DNA from: a virus
Strand: one strand, 5' to 3'
DNA: 64,000 nt
IMG/VR virus record: IMGVR_UViG_3300043172_001413
In this document: one piece after another, positions 3,004-23,512 of the stretch
How the letters are laid out: every line of letters starts with the position of its first letter
Numbering within the stretch: the stretch's first letter is position 1
Notes under the pieces: model-generated
Seen by the model: the letters and a program-made list of their open reading frames with translations, nothing else
Database searches by the model: none
What the model was told of the DNA's origin: nothing
Made by a program: the position numbers and the translations under genes

Positions 3004-4125
3004 TTGGAACTATTTATGGATATGGAAATTTATAATACCTGGAAGGGAATTAACGAATCACTCTCTTCTTATAAAAATTTCACTGCAATGCTCGATGAAA
3101 GACATACAGCCGGTTATACCCGGGGGGAAAGATTGAATACTTTCTATGTCTTGGGAAGATTCCTACTGGACGGCCACGGTAACTGCGGTTATGCTACTGA
3201 TTTTATCCCTGCAGAAAATATACCTGAATTTCCTAAAGTTGCTATGCATGATGTCTTCTGGCAAGTTATAAAAGACTGGCAGAAGAAAAAACAACCAGAT
3301 GTTTTAACAGATAAAGATATGAGAGCCTCGGATTTCAGCTATAGCAAGAATAAGCGACCTTTTCCGATCAGCATTAGTTTCGGGATGGAGAATATTATTC
3401 CTCCAGTTTCACTCCGATGTCCTCATTGTCAGAAAGGGTGGGCTATAGAAAACTGCCATGACGTAAAAAAAGTCAGCGGTGGGCGCTTAATCACTGAAGA
3501 CAGCCCTTTTATCGGGATAACCCTTGGGGAGCTACGTGAGGAATTCGGAAAGAGATCTGATGCAATGTATTATACCCATAATTTTATATACAATAATGGT
3601 GTAAAAAAGGATAATGTCAAGGAAGATTATGTTCTTATTGAGGGTGATAAGATCTCTTATGGAAAAGTTTACTACTATCACAGCGAGTGTCTTAGAGCCA
3701 GGCAAACCCTGGAATGTGAAGAGCACCGACATAATAATGGTGAAAATTATGAACAGTTAAACCTCGCTGGGAATATAGCTTGCGATGAATTTATTAAGTT
3801 GGAGCTTGAACTCACTGGAATAAATATTGTAGAGAAGAAAGGAAAGGGAGAAGTTCCCTATAATTATGAGGGCAGGCTTGGCGATTTCACTTTCAGGAGA
3901 GCCTGGTCTTACTGGGTAGTGCATGGAGATGTTCCTTTAAAACTTGCGAAAGAAATGTATTATGAAAGTGAGATTGGTCAAAAAACAGTGCGAGTAGCAG
4001 GTCATTGCGGTTGTCCTCGTCCGGAAGAGTGGGCACACGGTGGTTATGTTACTTCTTACCATATAGATAGCTGGAAAGGCTTGAAATTATTTGCAGACAC
4101 AATTAAGAATAATATGCTGGTGTAG
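3004..4125 (+). CDS. hypothetical Cys/His-rich protein (373 aa)
   Basis: Long uninterrupted ORF. The stop codon TAG overlaps the first nucleotides of the tRNA-Met gene. No recognisable domain. Confidence 0.5.
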   Translation: MELFMDMEIYNTWKGINESLSSYKNFTAMLDERHTAGYTRGERLNTFYVLGRFLLDGHGNCGYATDFIPAENIPEFPKVAMHDVFWQVIKDWQKKKQPDVLTDKDMRASDFSYSKNKRPFPISISFGMENIIPPVSLRCPHCQKGWAIENCHDVKKVSGGRLITEDSPFIGITLGELREEFGKRSDAMYYTHNFIYNNGVKKDNVKEDYVLIEGDKISYGKVYYYHSECLRARQTLECEEHRHNNGENYEQLNLAGNIACDEFIKLELELTGINIVEKKGKGEVPYNYEGRLGDFTFRRAWSYWVVHGDVPLKLAKEMYYESEIGQKTVRVAGHCGCPRPEEWAHGGYVTSYHIDSWKGLKLFADTIKNNMLV

Positions 4126-4191
4126 TTCAGTTGGCAGAACGTTGGAATCATAATCCAAAAGTCGGAGGTTCGATCCCTCTCACCAGCACCA
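4116..4191 (+). tRNA. tRNA-Met (CAU); a lysidine-modified Ile2 species cannot be excluded
   Basis: gctggtgtagttcagttggcagaacg ttgga-atcataa-tccaa aagtc ggagg-ttcgatc-cctct caccagc a cca. Confidence 0.8.
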
Positions 4192-4497
4192 TTTTTTAAA
4201 GGAGTACATTTTTTTAAGGAGTTCTGACAAAGAGGGGTAAACTATGAAGAATGAAAAGCAGAAAGAAATAGAAGTGAGAATATCTGCTAAACAATTAATA
4301 GATCATAAAAGATATGATGTATTTGAGAAAGGCGTATTTCATTTAAAGAAAAACAATCCAAATTTTAACTCAGATGATTATGATGTAATAATCAGGAAAA
4401 AAGAAATTAAATAATGCTGTAAGTTCAGTTGAATGAGAGTTTTTAAGATTTAACAAAGGAGGAAGCTATGCTATAATTACCTTAACAAGGAGTTATA

Positions 4498-4852: not shown

Positions 4853-5190
4853 TAGTCCCTGCATAGCGACTACCGGACGGCAAGGATGTGGTCGCTGTGG
4901 GTCGAGGAAGAATGCTACCGAGCATGCAGAATGCATTCATACTACCGACCGCGGACGTTTTTAATTATGAACCGATACCAAATTCTAATTAAAAAACCGG
5001 ATCAGTATGTATCTGTAGACAGGCAGACATCAAGATTTGGAGAATGCTCCTGCATAGACGGTTGTTGGAGAATGAATTTTTGTCCAGCGTGCCTTTATCT
5101 TCCGGATTTTATAAAACCTTTAATTGCCTGGGATGAGATAGATTCGGTTCAAATAGTATTACCAAATAAAAGATCGGAATCAAAAGAAAC

Positions 5191-5841
5191 ATGCACGACA
5201 GCAAAGATAGAATCGAGAGCTTTCGTGGCGAATATCGATTTCTCTCAAATTTCTGGTATGCAAAGACCGTCTACAAAGGAATTGAATTCCCTACGTCAGA
5301 GCATGCGTTTCAGGCTGCAAAATCTAATGATGAGCGCATACGGCGACTTTTCCTGACCTACGAGACACCGGGAGAGGCAAAACGACAGGGTCAGCTGATA
5401 GAGTGCCGGCCGAACTGGGATCTTATAAAAGTGGATGTCATGAACGCTATCTTATTTTCTAAGTTCTCAGATAATCACTTGATGGGGAAGCTTCTGGCAA
5501 CCGAGTATGTCGAATTAATCGAGGGCAATAACTGGGGCGATACCTTCTTCGGTGTCTGCAACGGTGAGGGTGAAAACTGGCTTGGTAGATTATTGATGAA
5601 TCTCCGTGCCTGGGAGTCAGAGTTTAGAAGATTAGACGGTGTTGTTATCGTTGAAATGGTACGGGATTTCCAGGTTAACGATGAAGAAATTATTACAGAG
5701 GGTGCCATAGGGACAATAAGATACGGAAACACTATTTATTTTCCTAAAGGAGTAATAAATCTACCCGAGGGAATAGCCCCTGAGTTTGTGCGCTATGATT
5801 TTGATAAGGATAATTGGAAGGGTCTGGTAAAGATAATATAA
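5191..5841 (+). CDS. NADAR (YbiA/DUF1768) domain protein, a predicted ADP-ribose-processing N-glycosidase
   Basis: N-terminal FRGEYRFLSNFW ... FPTSEHAFQAAK ... WDLIKVDVM matches the YbiA/NADAR signature. An extra ~70-aa C-terminal extension follows. Confidence 0.7.
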   Translation: MHDSKDRIESFRGEYRFLSNFWYAKTVYKGIEFPTSEHAFQAAKSNDERIRRLFLTYETPGEAKRQGQLIECRPNWDLIKVDVMNAILFSKFSDNHLMGKLLATEYVELIEGNNWGDTFFGVCNGEGENWLGRLLMNLRAWESEFRRLDGVVIVEMVRDFQVNDEEIITEGAIGTIRYGNTIYFPKGVINLPEGIAPEFVRYDFDKDNWKGLVKII

Positions 5842-5872: not shown

Positions 5873-6457
5873 ATGGAGAGATTTGATTTTAATGGTATGG
5901 AACTGCTTGAATTCGGACATAATATCCTGATTGGTGGTGTGATTTATTCAGGGAAAGGTAAGAATTATGTCTGTCTCCTTCCGGATGACGCGGATTTCGA
6001 TGACGAATTCTGTTTCCTTCAACTCAGTATGGAAGAGTGGAAGAAAGTTATTCGACAGACTGATCTGATGGAGACTGAAATCCTGCAAAAAGCCGCAGAT
6101 GGAACCATGGTTAAAGCTCTTGTAAGAAAGACGGCCCGGATGATTGAACAGGGAATCTCTTGGAGAGTCTATAAGCGGGACGGTTATAAGTGCCGGTACT
6201 GTGGTAAAGATGGCCCTTTAACTGTTGACCATCTGATTCTCTGGGAAGAAGGTGGACCCAGCATCGAGGAGAACTTGGTGACAGCCTGCAAGCGGTGTAA
6301 TAAGACCCGTGGGAGCATTCCTTATAAAGACTGGCTGGAGCATCCTTATTATCTGAAGGTGTCTAAGAAACTGGATCAGGACGGTCTGGACGCAAATATC
6401 GATCTGGTAGATACCTTGGTTGATATCCCTATAAGAATTCATGTCAGGAGCAGGTAA
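5873..6457 (+). CDS. HNH endonuclease
   Basis: C-terminal motif CRYCG...LTVDHLILWEEGGPSIEENLVTACKRCNKTRG, the HNH ββα-metal motif. Confidence 0.7.
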   Translation: MERFDFNGMELLEFGHNILIGGVIYSGKGKNYVCLLPDDADFDDEFCFLQLSMEEWKKVIRQTDLMETEILQKAADGTMVKALVRKTARMIEQGISWRVYKRDGYKCRYCGKDGPLTVDHLILWEEGGPSIEENLVTACKRCNKTRGSIPYKDWLEHPYYLKVSKKLDQDGLDANIDLVDTLVDIPIRIHVRSR

Positions 6458-10895: not shown

Positions 10896-10982
10896 GGCCA
10901 AATGGCGGAATTGGTAGACGCACTGGACTCAAAATCCAGCGGGGGAAACTCTGTGAGGGTTCAAGTCCCTCTTTGGCCACCA
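10896..10982 (+). tRNA. tRNA-Leu (CAA), long variable arm
   Basis: ggccaaatggcggaattggtagacgc a ctgga-ctcaaaa-tccag, variable arm cgggggaaactctgt, T-arm gaggg-ttcaagt-ccctc, tttggcc a cca. Confidence 0.75.
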
Positions 10983-11025
10983 TTAATACGCTCCGGTAGC
11001 TCAGTCAGAACAGAGCAACGGTCTT

Positions 11026-11630
11026 TTAAAATGGAGCCTTCTGTGTGGAAGATTAGGAAGATTGTTTCTAAAGGTGATTATAATTATGCTGTTGTTCCAG
11101 AACATCCTTTTGCTATAAAAAATGGCTATGTATTGGAACATCGTATAGTTATGGAAAATCATCTGGGTAGGCTTCTTAATCCCAATGAGCTGGTTCATCA
11201 TAAAGATGAACAAACTAAACATAATGATATCTTAAATCTCGAAATTAAGATAAAGGGCGAGCATGAAAGATACCATCAATTGCAGAAAGGACGGTTATGG
11301 GTAAGTCTTAAGTGCCCTCAGTGTAAAAAGATTTTTGAGAGGGAAAGAAGACTGACTTTTCTTTCAAAAGGAGATTCTTGTACATGTTGTTCTCACAGAT
11401 GTAAGGGTCTTTTTAATAGGAAAATACAGCTCAAAGGAAGAACTGCAGAAGTGGAGCAGGCTATATCGGAGAACGTCGTAAGAGAGTACCGTAGGTATTC
11501 ACACGATAATTCCGAGCAAACCTTAAACAAGGGGATGCGTAGAGGCCATACGCCTGCCGTCTGAAATGATGAAGAAATGGTCCAGCCAGCAAGCCTATAA
11601 TAGGTGGTTATGGAAACATGATGCTGGATG
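11026..11630 (+). mobile_element. group I intron (605 nt) with an HNH homing-endonuclease ORF, inserted in the tRNA anticodon loop
   Basis: The 3' portion (gataattccgagcaaacc ... gaaatggtccagcc ... g) parallels the 3' core of the ORF-less intron at 23189-23385 (gaattcaggggaacc ... gagatagtccaggcc). Ends in G before the 3' exon. I could not assign the P1 pairing confidently. Confidence 0.55.
11031..11564 (+). CDS. intron-encoded HNH homing endonuclease
   Basis: YVLEHRIVMENHLGRLLNPNELVHHKDEQTKHNDILNLEIKIKGEHERYH. Homologous to the ORFs at 22562-23164 and 13944-14627. The six-frame ORF call from 10902 is an artefact that runs through two tRNA sequences. Confidence 0.6.
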   Translation: MEPSVWKIRKIVSKGDYNYAVVPEHPFAIKNGYVLEHRIVMENHLGRLLNPNELVHHKDEQTKHNDILNLEIKIKGEHERYHQLQKGRLWVSLKCPQCKKIFERERRLTFLSKGDSCTCCSHRCKGLFNRKIQLKGRTAEVEQAISENVVREYRRYSHDNSEQTLNKGMRRGHTPAV

Positions 11631-11666
11631 CTAAACCGTAGGTCCCAGGTTTAAATCCTGGCCGGA

Positions 11667-11921
11667 GTGCCATATTTTAATAATCTATTGATAAGGGGTA
11701 AATCAGAAATGGTTTTAATACTCTTTATTAAAGGTTTTTTCATGGAAAATTTAAAGCGCGAACTACGGCAGGAAGCCGAAAAAAAACACGGGAAGATTTA
11801 CCCCTCAGGTAAAAGAGATAAACTGGATGACTGCTATACTGAAGATGGTGGCCAATTAATGTTTTGGTTTAATCTCGAGGACCAGTCTACGAAAATGTTA
11901 GCACGGGAGATACATAACTAA
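11667..11921 (+). CDS. hypothetical protein (84 aa)
   Basis: ORF. Confidence 0.3.
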   Translation: MPYFNNLLIRGKSEMVLILFIKGFFMENLKRELRQEAEKKHGKIYPSGKRDKLDDCYTEDGGQLMFWFNLEDQSTKMLAREIHN

Positions 11922-12455: not shown

Positions 12456-13073
12456 ATGACTTCAATAGTTGTTTTAACAAAAAACTTTCAGTTTCACACT
12501 GAAGTCGGAATTGAAAAATTCTGGAGTTGGTTAGTAAAGGAAAAAATCCATGTTGTTGTATCACATGACGGCGTACAGACCTATGTTGATTATAATCGTC
12601 AGAAGATGTCGGTCGATCAGGCTATATCAACATTTAAGGTCAGGCGACCAATGGTAGTACAACTATTGAAATTCGCGGGTTATTGTCCAAAGACTGAAGA
12701 GATTGGTTTTAATAAAGCTGCAGTCTTTGATCGTGATGATAATTACTGCCAATACTGGCATTACAATGAATTAAATCGTAAGTTTAAGTATAAATGTAAG
12801 CCAAGTGAGAGGACTATGGATCATATTATTCCAAAGATTCAGGGTGGTGAGCCCCATTCTTTCACCAACTGTGTATGTTCATGCCGGCATTGTAATATTG
12901 ATATCAAGAAAGGTCGCACTCCGAAGGAAGCTGGTCTGAAATTGATTCGGGAACCGTTTATTCCGAAAAGGAACAAACGTAGTTTTGTTCAGTTTAAGTT
13001 CCCGTATGATGAGAGTAAACTTTCACATAGGATTTACGTGAAACATATCTTAAAAGCAGAGAAGGTGTCCTAA
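12456..13073 (+). CDS. HNH endonuclease
   Basis: C-terminal half: NYCQYWHYNEL...TMDHIIPKIQGGEPHSFTNCVCSCRHCNIDIKKG. Confidence 0.65.
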   Translation: MTSIVVLTKNFQFHTEVGIEKFWSWLVKEKIHVVVSHDGVQTYVDYNRQKMSVDQAISTFKVRRPMVVQLLKFAGYCPKTEEIGFNKAAVFDRDDNYCQYWHYNELNRKFKYKCKPSERTMDHIIPKIQGGEPHSFTNCVCSCRHCNIDIKKGRTPKEAGLKLIREPFIPKRNKRSFVQFKFPYDESKLSHRIYVKHILKAEKVS

Positions 13074-13943: not shown

Positions 13944-14627
13944 ATGGGTATGGCAAAGAAGAAGCTCTTCGAGATTGATAAAGATAGCATTGTTAAGGCC
14001 ACAAAAGGTGGCTATTATTATTGCACGACTACTCCTCCACATCCCTATGGTGAAAAGCGCGATGATAGAAAAAAGAAATACATTTATTATCATAGAGCAC
14101 TTTTAGAGCAGAAGCTGGGCAGATATCTGAAATCTGAGGAGCAAGCAGACCATAAAGACGGTAATAAAGAGCACAATACCTCTTCAAATCTTGTATTATT
14201 AGTCCGCGGGCCGCATCAGAAGAGTCACGCTGAAAGAGGAAATCATTTCTGGAAGAAATCTCCTCGAAATAAACCTGGCAGGAAAGGTGCACGGAATGTC
14301 TTGGCAAAGTTTATTGAAGGTAGTGGTATTTTCATAGAAAAATGGATCCCAGTGAAAAAACTCCGAGAACCAAAGAAAAAACAAGCTCAGCGTGTAATAG
14401 CAAAATTTTCAGAAGAAAAGACTGCTGAGATATTATACCAGGCTTTTGTTAGCGGGCGTGAAGATCCGGCATATAAAAAGATGCCTAAATTGTTTCCTGA
14501 TTATAATAGTAATCAGGCGGATGATGCCACAGATTATTTAATGAGAGCTTTTCAGAAGAAACATTTTAATTTAAGTAAGGGGATTTTAAAAAGAGTCCAA
14601 AATAAAATTTTAGCAGGGATTACATAA
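13944..14627 (+). CDS. HNH endonuclease (homing-endonuclease family)
   Basis: YYHRALLEQKLGRYLKSEEQADHKDGNKEHNTSSNLVLLVRGPHQKSHAE. Homologous to the ORFs at 11031-11564 and 22562-23164. Confidence 0.6.
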   Translation: MGMAKKKLFEIDKDSIVKATKGGYYYCTTTPPHPYGEKRDDRKKKYIYYHRALLEQKLGRYLKSEEQADHKDGNKEHNTSSNLVLLVRGPHQKSHAERGNHFWKKSPRNKPGRKGARNVLAKFIEGSGIFIEKWIPVKKLREPKKKQAQRVIAKFSEEKTAEILYQAFVSGREDPAYKKMPKLFPDYNSNQADDATDYLMRAFQKKHFNLSKGILKRVQNKILAGIT

Positions 14628-22561: not shown

Positions 22562-23164
22562 ATGAATAGAAAAGAGGAAGCAAGACAATTAAGGAGAGCT
22601 GGAAAATCTCTAAATGATATAGCTCGATCAGTCGGGGCAGCAAAGAGTTCTATTAGCTTGTGGGTAAGAGATATCCCTCAACCTGAAAAGTACACAACAG
22701 AATACCGGCATACACGGAAGTTAAAGAGGTTAAAGAAATTAAAGGAAGAGAGAGAAAAAAATAAAAGAGTACGGAAAGAGAGAATTATTAGCGGTGACGG
22801 AAGATGGATGGTACCCACTCCTCCGGGTTATAAGGGAAAGACTTATATAAAAGGTCTTTATGTTTATGAGCACCGTTTAATAATGGAGAAAAAACTTGGA
22901 AGACTCTTAAAAATAAATGAAATTGTACACCATAAAGATGAAGATAAATTAAACAATGATGATGAAAATCTTGAATTGAAAACTAGAGGAGGCCATACAA
23001 GTCATCATCATAAGTCAAAAGAATTTGTTGAATTAAAATGCTCTTTTTGTAAAAGAACTTTTTTGAAAGAAAAGAGGAATTATAAAGTAAAAGTGAAACA
23101 GGGTCAGAAGAAATTTTATTGTACTAGATCCTGTGTAGCAAAGTCACAAAAAATTGGAGAGTAG
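22562..23164 (+). CDS. free-standing HNH homing endonuclease
   Basis: YVYEHRLIMEKKLGRLLKINEIVHHKDEDKLNNDDENLELKTRGGHTSHHH. N-terminal HTH-like RQLRRAGKSLNDIARSVGAAKSSISLWV. The stop codon TAG overlaps the first nucleotides of the intron-containing tRNA-Asn. Confidence 0.65.
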   Translation: MNRKEEARQLRRAGKSLNDIARSVGAAKSSISLWVRDIPQPEKYTTEYRHTRKLKRLKKLKEEREKNKRVRKERIISGDGRWMVPTPPGYKGKTYIKGLYVYEHRLIMEKKLGRLLKINEIVHHKDEDKLNNDDENLELKTRGGHTSHHHKSKEFVELKCSFCKRTFLKEKRNYKVKVKQGQKKFYCTRSCVAKSQKIGE

Positions 23165-23426
23165 CTCAATGGCAGAGCAGCTGGCTGTCGGGTTGGCAGC
23201 CCTTACAGGAAACTGTAAGGTGAAAACTGGGTGAATTCAGGGGAACCTAAGTCCTTTAAGGATATGGCAATCGTGAGCGAAGCCTTGAAAGAGGAACGTG
23301 CAGAGACTTATAGCGCCCAGCACCTAAAGCGTAAAGCTATGGTGATGAGATAGTCCAGGCCTCCGGGAAATCGGGGGGATAACTGTAACCAGCGGGTTGG
23401 AGGTTCGAGCCCTCTCTCTCCAGCCA
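23155..23426 (+). tRNA. tRNA-Asn (GUU) interrupted by a group I intron
   Basis: 5' exon tggagagtagctcaatggcagagca gctgg ctgt (23155-23188). 3' exon taa ccagc gggtt ggagg-ttcgagc-cctct ctctcca g cca (23386-23426). U1-A72 and G73 as in E. coli tRNA-Asn. Spliced anticodon loop ctgttaa. Confidence 0.75.
23189..23385 (+). mobile_element. group I intron (197 nt, Azoarcus tRNA-Ile-like IC3 type), no ORF
   Basis: A candidate P1 pairs exon ggctgt with the intron guide sequence gcagcc, giving a U-G pair at the 5' splice site. The intron ends in G. The core ggaacctaag...gatatggcaatcgtgagcgaag...gtgcagagacttatagcgcccagcacctaaagcgtaaagctatgg...atagtccagg closely resembles the Azoarcus pre-tRNA-Ile intron core, as recalled from memory. 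Confidence 0.7.
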
Positions 23427-23512
23427 TTTACATCGGGGTGAGTCGGAAACTCAGATATCTCAGAATCGAAATAATTCTGGTGCATGTCTCATTTCTGAGA
23501 GACCCCGACCAT

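Follow-up and report, generated by a model that had tools for sequence, protein, structure and literature searches.

What becomes of a tRNA gene whose anticodon loop is split by several hundred nucleotides: is the gene dead, or would its transcript be restored by splicing? The question is raised by positions 10990-11672 of a 64,000-nt stretch of viral DNA (IMG/VR record IMGVR_UViG_3300043172_001413; this whole stretch is hereafter called the window), for which an original prediction, made from the letters alone, had described two tRNA halves at 10990-11025 and 11631-11672, separated by a 605-nt group I intron with an internal HNH homing-endonuclease open reading frame (ORF). Both halves and the insert (11026-11630) were found as described. 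The analysis reported here indicates that the locus is very probably a working phage tRNA-Arg(UCU) gene, probably of a huge phage, which is interrupted by a mobile group I intron between U34 and C35.

A tRNA-Arg(UCU) gene in two halves

The 5' half, which starts seven bases beyond a tRNA-Leu(CAA) gene (10896-10982), reads GCTCCGG-TA-GCTC-AGTCAGAACA-GAGC-A-ACGGT-CTT and supplies the 5' strand of the acceptor stem, the D arm, the 5' strand of the anticodon stem (ACGGT, 11018-11022) and the loop bases C32, U33 and U34 (11023-11025). The 3' half reads CTAA-ACCGT-AGGTC-CCAGG-TTTAAAT-CCTGG-CCGGAGT-G-CCA, which corresponds to C35, U36, A37 and A38, the 3' strand of the anticodon stem (ACCGT), the variable loop, the T arm, the 3' strand of the acceptor stem, the discriminator G and an encoded CCA. 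No tRNA was called at 10990-11672 by ARAGORN in either its default or its intron mode. When position 11025 was joined to 11631, the same program returned a tRNA-Arg(tct) of 78 nt with a regular, full cloverleaf, a 7-nt anticodon loop reading UCU and an acceptor stem that opens with a G.U pair. In a comparison with GenBank phages, 287 records matched the spliced sequence, and among them are intron-less genes annotated as tRNA-Arg to which it is about 83% identical across 91% of its length. The resemblance of the 5' exon to E. coli tRNA-Arg(UCU) that had been put forward earlier could not be confirmed, as blastn of the spliced tRNA against E. coli genomes returned nothing.

The insert as a group I intron

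A search of 241 nt (11400-11640) with the Rfam group I model Intron_gpI (RF00028) gave a match of 30.4 bits (E 2.9e-6) spanning 11401-11603, with high posterior probability over P3, P4, P6, J6/7-P7, P3', P8 and J8/7-P7'. The group I core foreseen in the original prediction was thus found by covariance search on this fragment, and not by a scan of the whole window at the gathering threshold or an E-value search of 951 nt. The 3' 200 nt of the insert also align with the intron at 23189-23385 of the same window, a homology that had likewise been anticipated. As the score on the fragment lies under the gathering threshold, relatives of the intron were sought.

A protein-guided scan together with a pattern scan for the conserved stretch from P7 to P7' yielded seven IMG/VR loci, and the same kind of pattern yielded 63 metagenome loci (single loci are cited below by L numbers). 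A script then listed all junctions with U before the intron and G at its end that give back a loop of 7 nt on a stem of 5 bp; the joined sequences were passed to ARAGORN. In this way tRNA-Arg(UCU) was recovered in 61 loci besides that of the window, with 47 distinct introns if the one of the window is counted, and a split gene that recurs so often is therefore not a product of chance. All 47 introns follow CTT, end in G and are followed by CTAA, and the five bases flanking them on either side are complementary within each locus and differ between loci. Where the script reached no solution, the locus was mostly cut at its end, and the 3' exon, if present, had the same form. By length, the introns fall into those without an ORF (206-282 nt), those with ORF remnants (392-443 nt) and those with a full ORF (593-657 nt; 605 nt in the window); L024, L064 and L029 are degenerate members with truncated ORFs. 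The minimal, ORF-less intron of L015 (206 nt) scored 45.1 bits with Intron_gpI, and its P1 was placed on the same bases as proposed here for the window.

The core of the window intron aligns block by block with three published bacterial Arg(TCT) introns that occupy site 34/35 and are labelled IC3 (PMC13011429, supplement 2). On the strength of this alignment the intron is assigned to the IC3-type family known from bacterial tRNA-Arg(UCU) genes at the same site, where the assignment to IC3 denotes homology to introns so labelled in PMC13011429 and a shared insertion site.

The secondary structure (Table 1) was assessed in an alignment of 28 family members in which the interior of the ORF was replaced by NNNN; helices were drawn from the window sequence and their pairs counted in all members. 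Over 64 pairs, standard pairs were formed in 92.0% of cells, compared with 38-42% when partners were slid by 1-3 columns, and the covariation score was 0.564 (reached by 0 of 500 shuffles), compared with 0.07-0.11 after sliding. The covariation test supported the anticodon stem, P1, P2, P3, P4, P6, P7, P8, P9 and P9b. RNAalifold, which was run without the proposed model and is unable to represent the P7 pseudoknot, recovered the anticodon stem, P1, P2, P3, P4, P5, P6, P8, P9 and P9b. In the anticodon stem, all five pairs have changed on both sides and 100% of cells are paired. All eight pairs of P2 covary, with 95.5% of cells paired: two anchors picked regardless of pairing (GGAG and the ATATCGG motif of P4) set two 8-nt segments in a fixed register, and these segments are complementary in almost every member despite their differing sequences, reading UUUCAUUG and CAAUGAAA in L001, CUUGCUUU and AGAGCAAG in L007, and CGUUAACU and AGUUAACG in L026. 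The span of P7 encloses J7/3, P3' and P8 (11558-11571, loop UGAAAU). P7 is paired in 100% of cells, a figure to be read with the fact that the loci were gathered with a pattern from P7/J8-7, which makes conservation there partly a matter of construction; the GGCC/GGUC variant of the window occurs in 12 of the 28 members and is compensatory to GACU/AGUC (UA 16 : CG 12). P9 is followed by A-U-G up to the last intron base, omega-G (G11630), and every helix of the window copy is intact.

The original prediction had found no clean P1 for its preferred junction. A P1 of 4 bp was identified, in which the exon bases CUU and the first intron base pair with GGAG at 11033-11036, with the U11025.G11034 wobble at the splice site. 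Across the alignment, the C-G pair is kept in 27/28 members, and the U-A pair as well as the U.G at the splice site in 28/28. Opposite G, the introns open with either U or C, and GGAG is retained in members without an adjacent ATG (ACGGAG, AAGGAG, UAGGAG). G11033 could, in addition, form P10 with C11631, where the 3' exon begins. Among tRNA introns, whose exons are held together by the anticodon stem, a short P1 is usual. Splicing of the Anabaena tRNA-Leu intron depends on the exons being paired in that stem (Zaug, McEvoy & Cech 1993, cited in PMC3984707).

Other candidate elements were considered and rejected. The segment GGTCTTTTTAATAGG (11406-11420) resembles GGTCTTTTAAAATGG (11020-11034), which suggested either a second copy of the 5' splice site or a processing site inside the intron; its apparent counterpart in L001 lies at another alignment position, and L198 has GGTGTTTTTGTTAG. 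The repeat ACCGTAGGT, which occurs in the P5a loop (11488-11496) and in the 3' exon (11635-11643), was discarded as a guide sequence or an exon mimic, as neither L198 nor the other family members have it. Two further candidate guides, CAGCUC, just upstream of P2' or P3 and the positional homologue of GGCAGCC in the intron at 23189-23385, and AAGAUU, repeated at 11051-11066, were dismissed because neither shows pairing with the exon throughout the family.

With P1 and its U.G pair, omega-G, the core helices and the P3/P7 pseudoknot all present, the comparative sequence evidence confirms the insert as a group I intron.

Table 1. Coordinates of the split tRNA-Arg(UCU) gene, its intron and the proposed intron structure in the window
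Feature	Position	Strand	Basis or remarks
5' exon of tRNA-Arg(UCU)	10990..11025	+	Direct reading; ARAGORN cloverleaf on joined halves; anticodon-stem covariation
Group I intron of 605 nt, IC3-type family, at tRNA site 34/35	11026..11630	+	Rfam; family covariation; alignment with bacterial introns
3' exon of tRNA-Arg(UCU)	11631..11672	+	Direct reading; ARAGORN on joined halves
HNH homing-endonuclease ORF in P2 loop	11031..11564	+	177 aa from ATG 11031, 173 aa from GTG 11043; stop TGA 11562-11564
P1 hairpin	11023..11036	+	Exon C-U-U and intron U11026 with GGAG 11033-11036; loop 11027-11032
P2, 5' strand (CUUCUGUG)	11038..11045	+	Contains GTG start codon 11043-11045
P2, 3' strand (UGCAGAAG)	11444..11451	+	Closes the ORF-bearing loop of about 400 nt
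P3	11456-11461 with 11552-11557	+	4/6 pairs covary, 98.8% of cells paired; encloses P4, P5, P5a and P6
P4	11466-11471 / 11510-11515	+	98.2% of cells paired
P5	11475-11479 / 11503-11507	+	Recovered by RNAalifold
P5a	11484-11500	+	
P6	11516-11538	+	Covaries
P7, guanosine-binding helix, pseudoknot	11542..11583	+	GAGGCC 11542-11547 (A11543 bulged) with GGUCC 11579-11583
P9	11586-11591 / 11622-11627	+	CCAGCA / UGCUGG; 3/6 pairs covary
P9a	11594-11604	+	
P9b	11608-11621	+	GAAA tetraloop; 5/5 pairs covary, 100% of cells paired

An endonuclease gene that runs into the ribozyme

Counted from the 5' end of the intron, the ORF begins after 5 nt if ATG is the start and after 17 nt if it is GTG; the ORF product matches PHROG HNH endonuclease families (E 1.9e-18). 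Its predicted homology to the free-standing HNH protein encoded at 22562-23164 was also borne out (47% identity over 103 aa, E 3e-23), and the window thus holds both of the states that had been envisaged, an intron with an internal endonuclease and an intron with a neighbouring one. A database search with the window protein returned 455 clusters at E <= 1e-5, the best 120 of which were 53-92% identical to the query, nearly all covering 86-100% of it and nearly all unnamed; the homologues mostly carry a precomputed PF13392 match. In 54 homologues (53-92% identity), H52, H53, N61, N65, H74 and H78 (VHH...N...NL...H...H) are invariant together with four Cys, and all of these residues are present in the window protein, which argues for selection on the catalytic motif. 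An AlphaFold model on the alignment of homologues reached a mean pLDDT of 87.7. The predicted protein comes closest to I-HmuI, at a level below significance in Foldseek, so that an I-HmuI-like HNH fold is suggested at most.

In most members, ATG, GTG or TTG lies 5-7 nt after GGAG and directly before a conserved Trp codon, and several members have an in-frame stop, or no start codon, before GGAG. The family-typical start of the window ORF is therefore GTG 11043, with ATG 11031 as the alternative, and GGAG is likely to double as the ribosome-binding site of the endonuclease gene. Since GGAG lies at a Shine-Dalgarno distance from a start codon that is itself inside P2, an RNA folded into P1 and P2 should be unable to serve for endonuclease translation, and vice versa.

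That the ORF lies within the intron agrees with the original prediction; it is not a separate cassette there, as it overlaps about 120 nt of the ribozyme, from P2' to L8. The frame is open through P2', P3, P4, P5 and P6, and its last 120 nt or so overlap P2', P3, P4, P5, P6, P7 and P3', with about the last 40 codons coming from ribozyme core sequence. In the model, residues 134-152, encoded by 11442-11498 (about 57 nt, P2' to P5), form a helix and a strand with pLDDT >90, and residues 153-173 are disordered. Across the family the stop codons are supplied by conserved RNA motifs, namely GUAGAG of P7 (UAG), the P8 loop (UGA, the stop found in the window) and AUAGUCC (UAG), and relative to P7 they lie anywhere between -102 and +39 nt. 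The introns of L039, L048 and L025 (654-657 nt) have a short P2 hairpin and an ORF further downstream that ends at P7, so the insertion point of the ORF differs.

Weighing of the alternatives

Several points count against a working phage gene with a mobile, self-splicing intron. The 30.4 bits of the window core fall short of the RF00028 gathering score of 50, and no tested family member, ORF-less ones included, reached 50 bits in a gathering-threshold scan; the whole family lies just under the cut-off, and the score of the window is lowered further by the insert of about 400 nt in P2. The Pfam HNH_3 (PF13392) match of the protein has 20.3 bits (E 4e-4), below the cut-off of 24.8. A PDB sequence search with the window protein gave no significant match, and the Foldseek match to I-HmuI (PDB 1U3E), at 16% identity, was not significant. 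P1, being invariant, draws its support from conservation and position and cannot be proved by covariation, and the conservation near P7 is in part built in by the way the loci were gathered. Splicing, the ligated junction and DNA cleavage are inferred from sequence, as is the phage origin.

Some of these points bear on the ORF, which might no longer encode a homing endonuclease and might persist, beside a real ribozyme, as a maturase-like or DNA-binding remnant or as an untranslated frame, with the intron being kept by vertical descent only. Such a loss of function would fit the Pfam score under the cut-off, the ambiguous start (ATG 11031 is without a ribosome-binding site and GTG 11043 lies inside P2) and the variable end of the frame. 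It is nevertheless rated as unlikely, given that the histidines and asparagines of the motif and the four Cys are invariant over 54 homologues, that the homologues in 455 clusters are near full length, and that the intron sits in more than one tRNA backbone and may have or lack the ORF.

In the tRNA of the window copy, the D-loop (AGUCAGAACA) and the T-loop (UUUAAAU) are unusual. A D-loop GA always goes with a T-loop UUU, as found at six loci (the window, at 11003-11012 and 11650-11656, and L027, L041, L061, L062 and L071), and in the remaining family loci a D-loop GG always accompanies a T-loop UUC. This distribution identifies the change as a compensated switch of the tertiary pair 19-56 from G-C to A-U. 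L198, the closest relative, with a 79%-identical protein, has the canonical GG/UUC form, and the changes that set the window apart from it in P3, in P8 and in the T stem are compensatory. Together with the compensated 19-56 pair, this is the pattern expected from selection on a functional tRNA and ribozyme.

A dead gene, disrupted by the HNH gene with only remnants of an intron around it and giving no mature tRNA from this copy, would accommodate the low Rfam score, the odd D- and T-loops, the G.U pair at the start of the acceptor stem and the degenerate members with truncated ORFs (L024, L064 and L029), and it is favoured by the fact that splicing is itself deduced. The window copy, however, has all its helices intact; its P7 and P8 variants are common to many members and compensated; its odd loops amount to an A-U in place of a G-C pair, compensated at six loci; its differences from L198 in P3, P8 and the T stem are compensatory; and its ORF is open and keeps every invariant residue. 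Loss of the gene is accordingly rated as quite unlikely, and splicing of the window copy to tRNA-Arg(UCU) as highly probable.

There remains the choice of anticodon. Three junctions give a 7-nt loop, CTT+CTAA (UCU), CTTT+TAA (UUU) and CTTTT+AA (UUU), and the first is the sole one of the three to leave G as the last intron base. In L019 (240-350) the same intron core and HNH are followed by G and then TTAATCCGT, a tRNA-Lys(UUU) 3' exon beginning with TTAA; this locus is cut upstream, with its 5' exon outside it, and the element appears to have settled in a second tRNA that shares the CUU end of the 5' exon. A junction one or two bases further 3', which would yield a mature tRNA-Lys(UUU) in the window, is accepted by ARAGORN in both forms as tRNA-Lys(ttt) and has parallels in L019 and in bacterial introns at site 34/35 of Lys(TTT) genes, whose guide is likewise GGAG, but is very improbable, because the shifted intron would end in C or U and not in the G that precedes CTAA in 47/47 introns, because introns starting with C (for example L015 and L024) give UCU from any possible junction, because the true Lys variant has a TTAA 3' exon that the window lacks, and because the ARAGORN tRNA set of the window already includes two tRNA-Lys(UUU) and one Lys(CUU), along with a tRNA-Arg(CCU), and no further tRNA-Arg(UCU). 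Both the junction rules, with an intron ending in G, and the family-wide G before CTAA identify the anticodon as UCU and not UUU and place the insertion site at 34/35, in agreement with the junction and anticodon preferred in the original prediction. The likeness of the spliced sequence to phage genes annotated as tRNA-Arg also speaks for UCU. As to arginine identity elements, C35 follows from the junction, an A lies at about position 20 of the unusual D-loop, and the discriminator is G.

Genomic context

The window probably derives from a phage, and from a huge one, as suggested by its dense tRNA array, by some PHROG matches and by one protein with similarity to huge uncultured phages. The array comprises 26 tRNAs called by ARAGORN and two intron-bearing ones, among many small ORFs. 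The protein in question (826 aa; 30755-33232, - strand) has no PHROG match and shares 41-43% identity along almost its whole length with proteins of the uncultured huge phages LR756500/501/503 (462-735 kb), which makes it the best clue to the probable origin of the window. Against GenBank phages, blastn of the region matched the neighbouring tRNA-Leu only, and megablast of 24 kb returned nothing. Among the relatives, several ORF-bearing members are located on contigs of 50-143 kb from IMG/VR or of 100-630 kb from metagenomes, often amid scattered tRNA genes, and at least one ORF-less member adjoins a 16S rRNA gene, a bacterial context.

The tRNA array is rich in endonuclease genes: at least three more HNH-type ORFs occur amid the tRNA genes of the window, at 5873-6457, 12456-13073 and 13944-14627 (PF01844, E 5e-12 and 2.5e-7; HNH_3, E 7.6e-5, below the cut-off). 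A NADAR-domain ORF lies at 5191-5841. L198 (NCBI metagenome contig VAPA010948999.1) likewise has two more HNH_3 ORFs (1955-2575 and 5079-5540) within 6 kb of its intron-bearing tRNA-Arg. In L064 a HEARO RNA (Rfam RF02033, 97.7 bits) was found at 4056-4252, in a tRNA run 2.6 kb downstream of the intron-bearing tRNA-Arg, and on three large contigs ARAGORN called a tmRNA gene only a few kb away from the split tRNA (L033, 10728-11067; L045, 7621-7960; L049, 10597-10956).

The second intron of the window, 23189-23385 (region 23155-23430), is ORF-less and sits at site 35/36 of a tRNA-Asn(GUU) gene, a call that rests on a P1 of GGCUGU/GCAGCC with its U.G at 23188, on omega-G 23385, and on U1-A72 and G73. 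ARAGORN in intron mode miscalls this gene as Thr(tgt), and the intron that it proposes lacks a terminal G; the same miscall has been reported for Asn 35/36 introns (PMC13011429). The free-standing HNH protein beside it has an N-terminal HTH-like region, and its stop codon (23162-23164) ends 10 nt inside the tRNA-Asn gene, which starts at 23155.

Proposed splicing and homing

In the proposed mechanism, an exogenous guanosine bound in P7 would attack the precursor after U11025. Omega-G 11630 would then replace the guanosine in P7, and the freed 3' OH of U11025 would attack before C11631, joining the exons as CUUCUAA in a normal tRNA; the ligated product is expected to read ACGGUCUU-CUAAACCGU. 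The HNH protein, for its part, may act as I-HmuI does and cut or nick, close to the anticodon, those tRNA-Arg(UCU) genes of co-infecting relatives that lack the intron; repair of the cut gene would then copy the intron in. The predicted target is the intron-less junction GAGCAACGGTCTTCTAAACCGTAGGT. The intron-less alleles with which the original prediction wished the locus to be compared do exist: the exact junction of 26 nt was found in at least 120 IMG/VR stretches, and homing targets are therefore plentiful. The same intron, moreover, occurs with an ORF, with a truncated ORF and without one, and in different tRNA backbones, which is the pattern expected of an active mobile element.

A broader reading is offered tentatively and may well prove too ambitious. 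The family would be the first described self-splicing intron family in phage tRNA genes, and a widespread one, in which one stretch of RNA has three uses: GGAG as both guide and ribosome-binding site, a start codon within P2, and about 57 nt of ribozyme that also encode a C-terminal helix and strand. Folding and translation, if mutually exclusive, could then time homing against tRNA production.

Relation to known systems

The closest counterparts are the Arg(TCT) 34/35 introns of Bacillota and Bacteroidota, labelled IC3 (PMC13011429, mSystems 2026). They share with the window intron the host gene, the site (CTT before the intron, CTAA after it), the GGAGCC guide region, the position of the P2 hairpin, the G-terminal end, and the blocks GCTRTATCGG, CCGAGGAAAC, CCGTAGAGACTAYACG and CACCTGAAATGGTGAAGATATAGTCCAG. 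They differ in being chromosomal, mostly 213-338 nt long and without an ORF, whereas the window copy lies in a phage-like tRNA array and has an HNH gene in P2. The 639-nt intron of GCF_009740285.1 has its extra sequence downstream of P4 and not in P2.

Endonuclease genes are rare in bacterial tRNA introns, with 12 of 333 carrying any; those in tRNA-Arg(UCU) introns of bacteria belong to the PD-(D/E)XK family, and HNH genes are known from tRNA-Asn(GUU) 35/36 introns of Patescibacteria and tRNA-Leu(UAA) introns of Bacteroidota (PMC13011429). Introns of the tRNA-fMet/I-SspI type also have a PD-(D/E)XK endonuclease (Bonocora & Shub 2001, as cited in PMC3984707). These systems resemble the window in having the gene inside a group I intron of the anticodon loop, with the HNH class in two cases; they differ in the tRNA and site and in the HNH family (PF01844, compared with a PF13392-like protein in the window), and none has been reported from a phage.

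The cyanobacterial and plastid tRNA-Leu(UAA) introns and the Azoarcus tRNA-Ile intron likewise have a small IC3 core in the anticodon loop and a short P1, and differ in the tRNA and in lacking an ORF. A GNRA loop in L9 is also shared. The tRNA-Leu intron is inserted at 34/35 as well, after CUU, and is described in PMC3984707 as splicing via exon pairing in the anticodon stem. I-HmuI is an HNH nicking homing endonuclease from a group I intron within phage SPO1's gene for DNA polymerase (PDB 1U3E), so that its host gene is protein-coding and that of the window a tRNA; the window protein is further unlike it in its Cys4 zinc-finger-like module and in a C-terminal segment encoded by the ribozyme core. 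In phage T4, mobE / I-TevIII represents a free-standing endonuclease beside an ORF-less intron, with homing in trans (PMC2790892), an arrangement that the window repeats in the ORF-less intron at 23189-23385 and the adjoining HNH gene at 22562-23164, outside the locus 10990-11672.

All phage introns known in 2014 were in protein-coding genes, despite the many tRNA genes of phages (Hausner, Hafez and Edgell 2014, PMC3984707), and the tRNA intron survey of 2026 covered bacterial genomes only (PMC13011429). In a literature search, with incomplete coverage of subscription journals and thus not amounting to proof, no phage tRNA gene was described as carrying a group I intron. Because the default settings of ARAGORN and Rfam miss the gene, tRNA-Arg(UCU) would be scored as absent from such phage genomes and the endonuclease would be called a free-standing 'hypothetical protein'. 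If the contigs are truly from phages, phage tRNA arrays would be a substantial and overlooked home for mobile introns. A guide that probably doubles as a ribosome-binding site, followed by an ORF that runs into the core, makes the locus a compact natural system for the conflict between translation and ribozyme folding. The ribozyme family and its insertion site were thus known before, and the novelty lies in their occurrence within a phage tRNA array, in an HNH gene carried by P2 and in the proposed threefold role of the 5' region and core.

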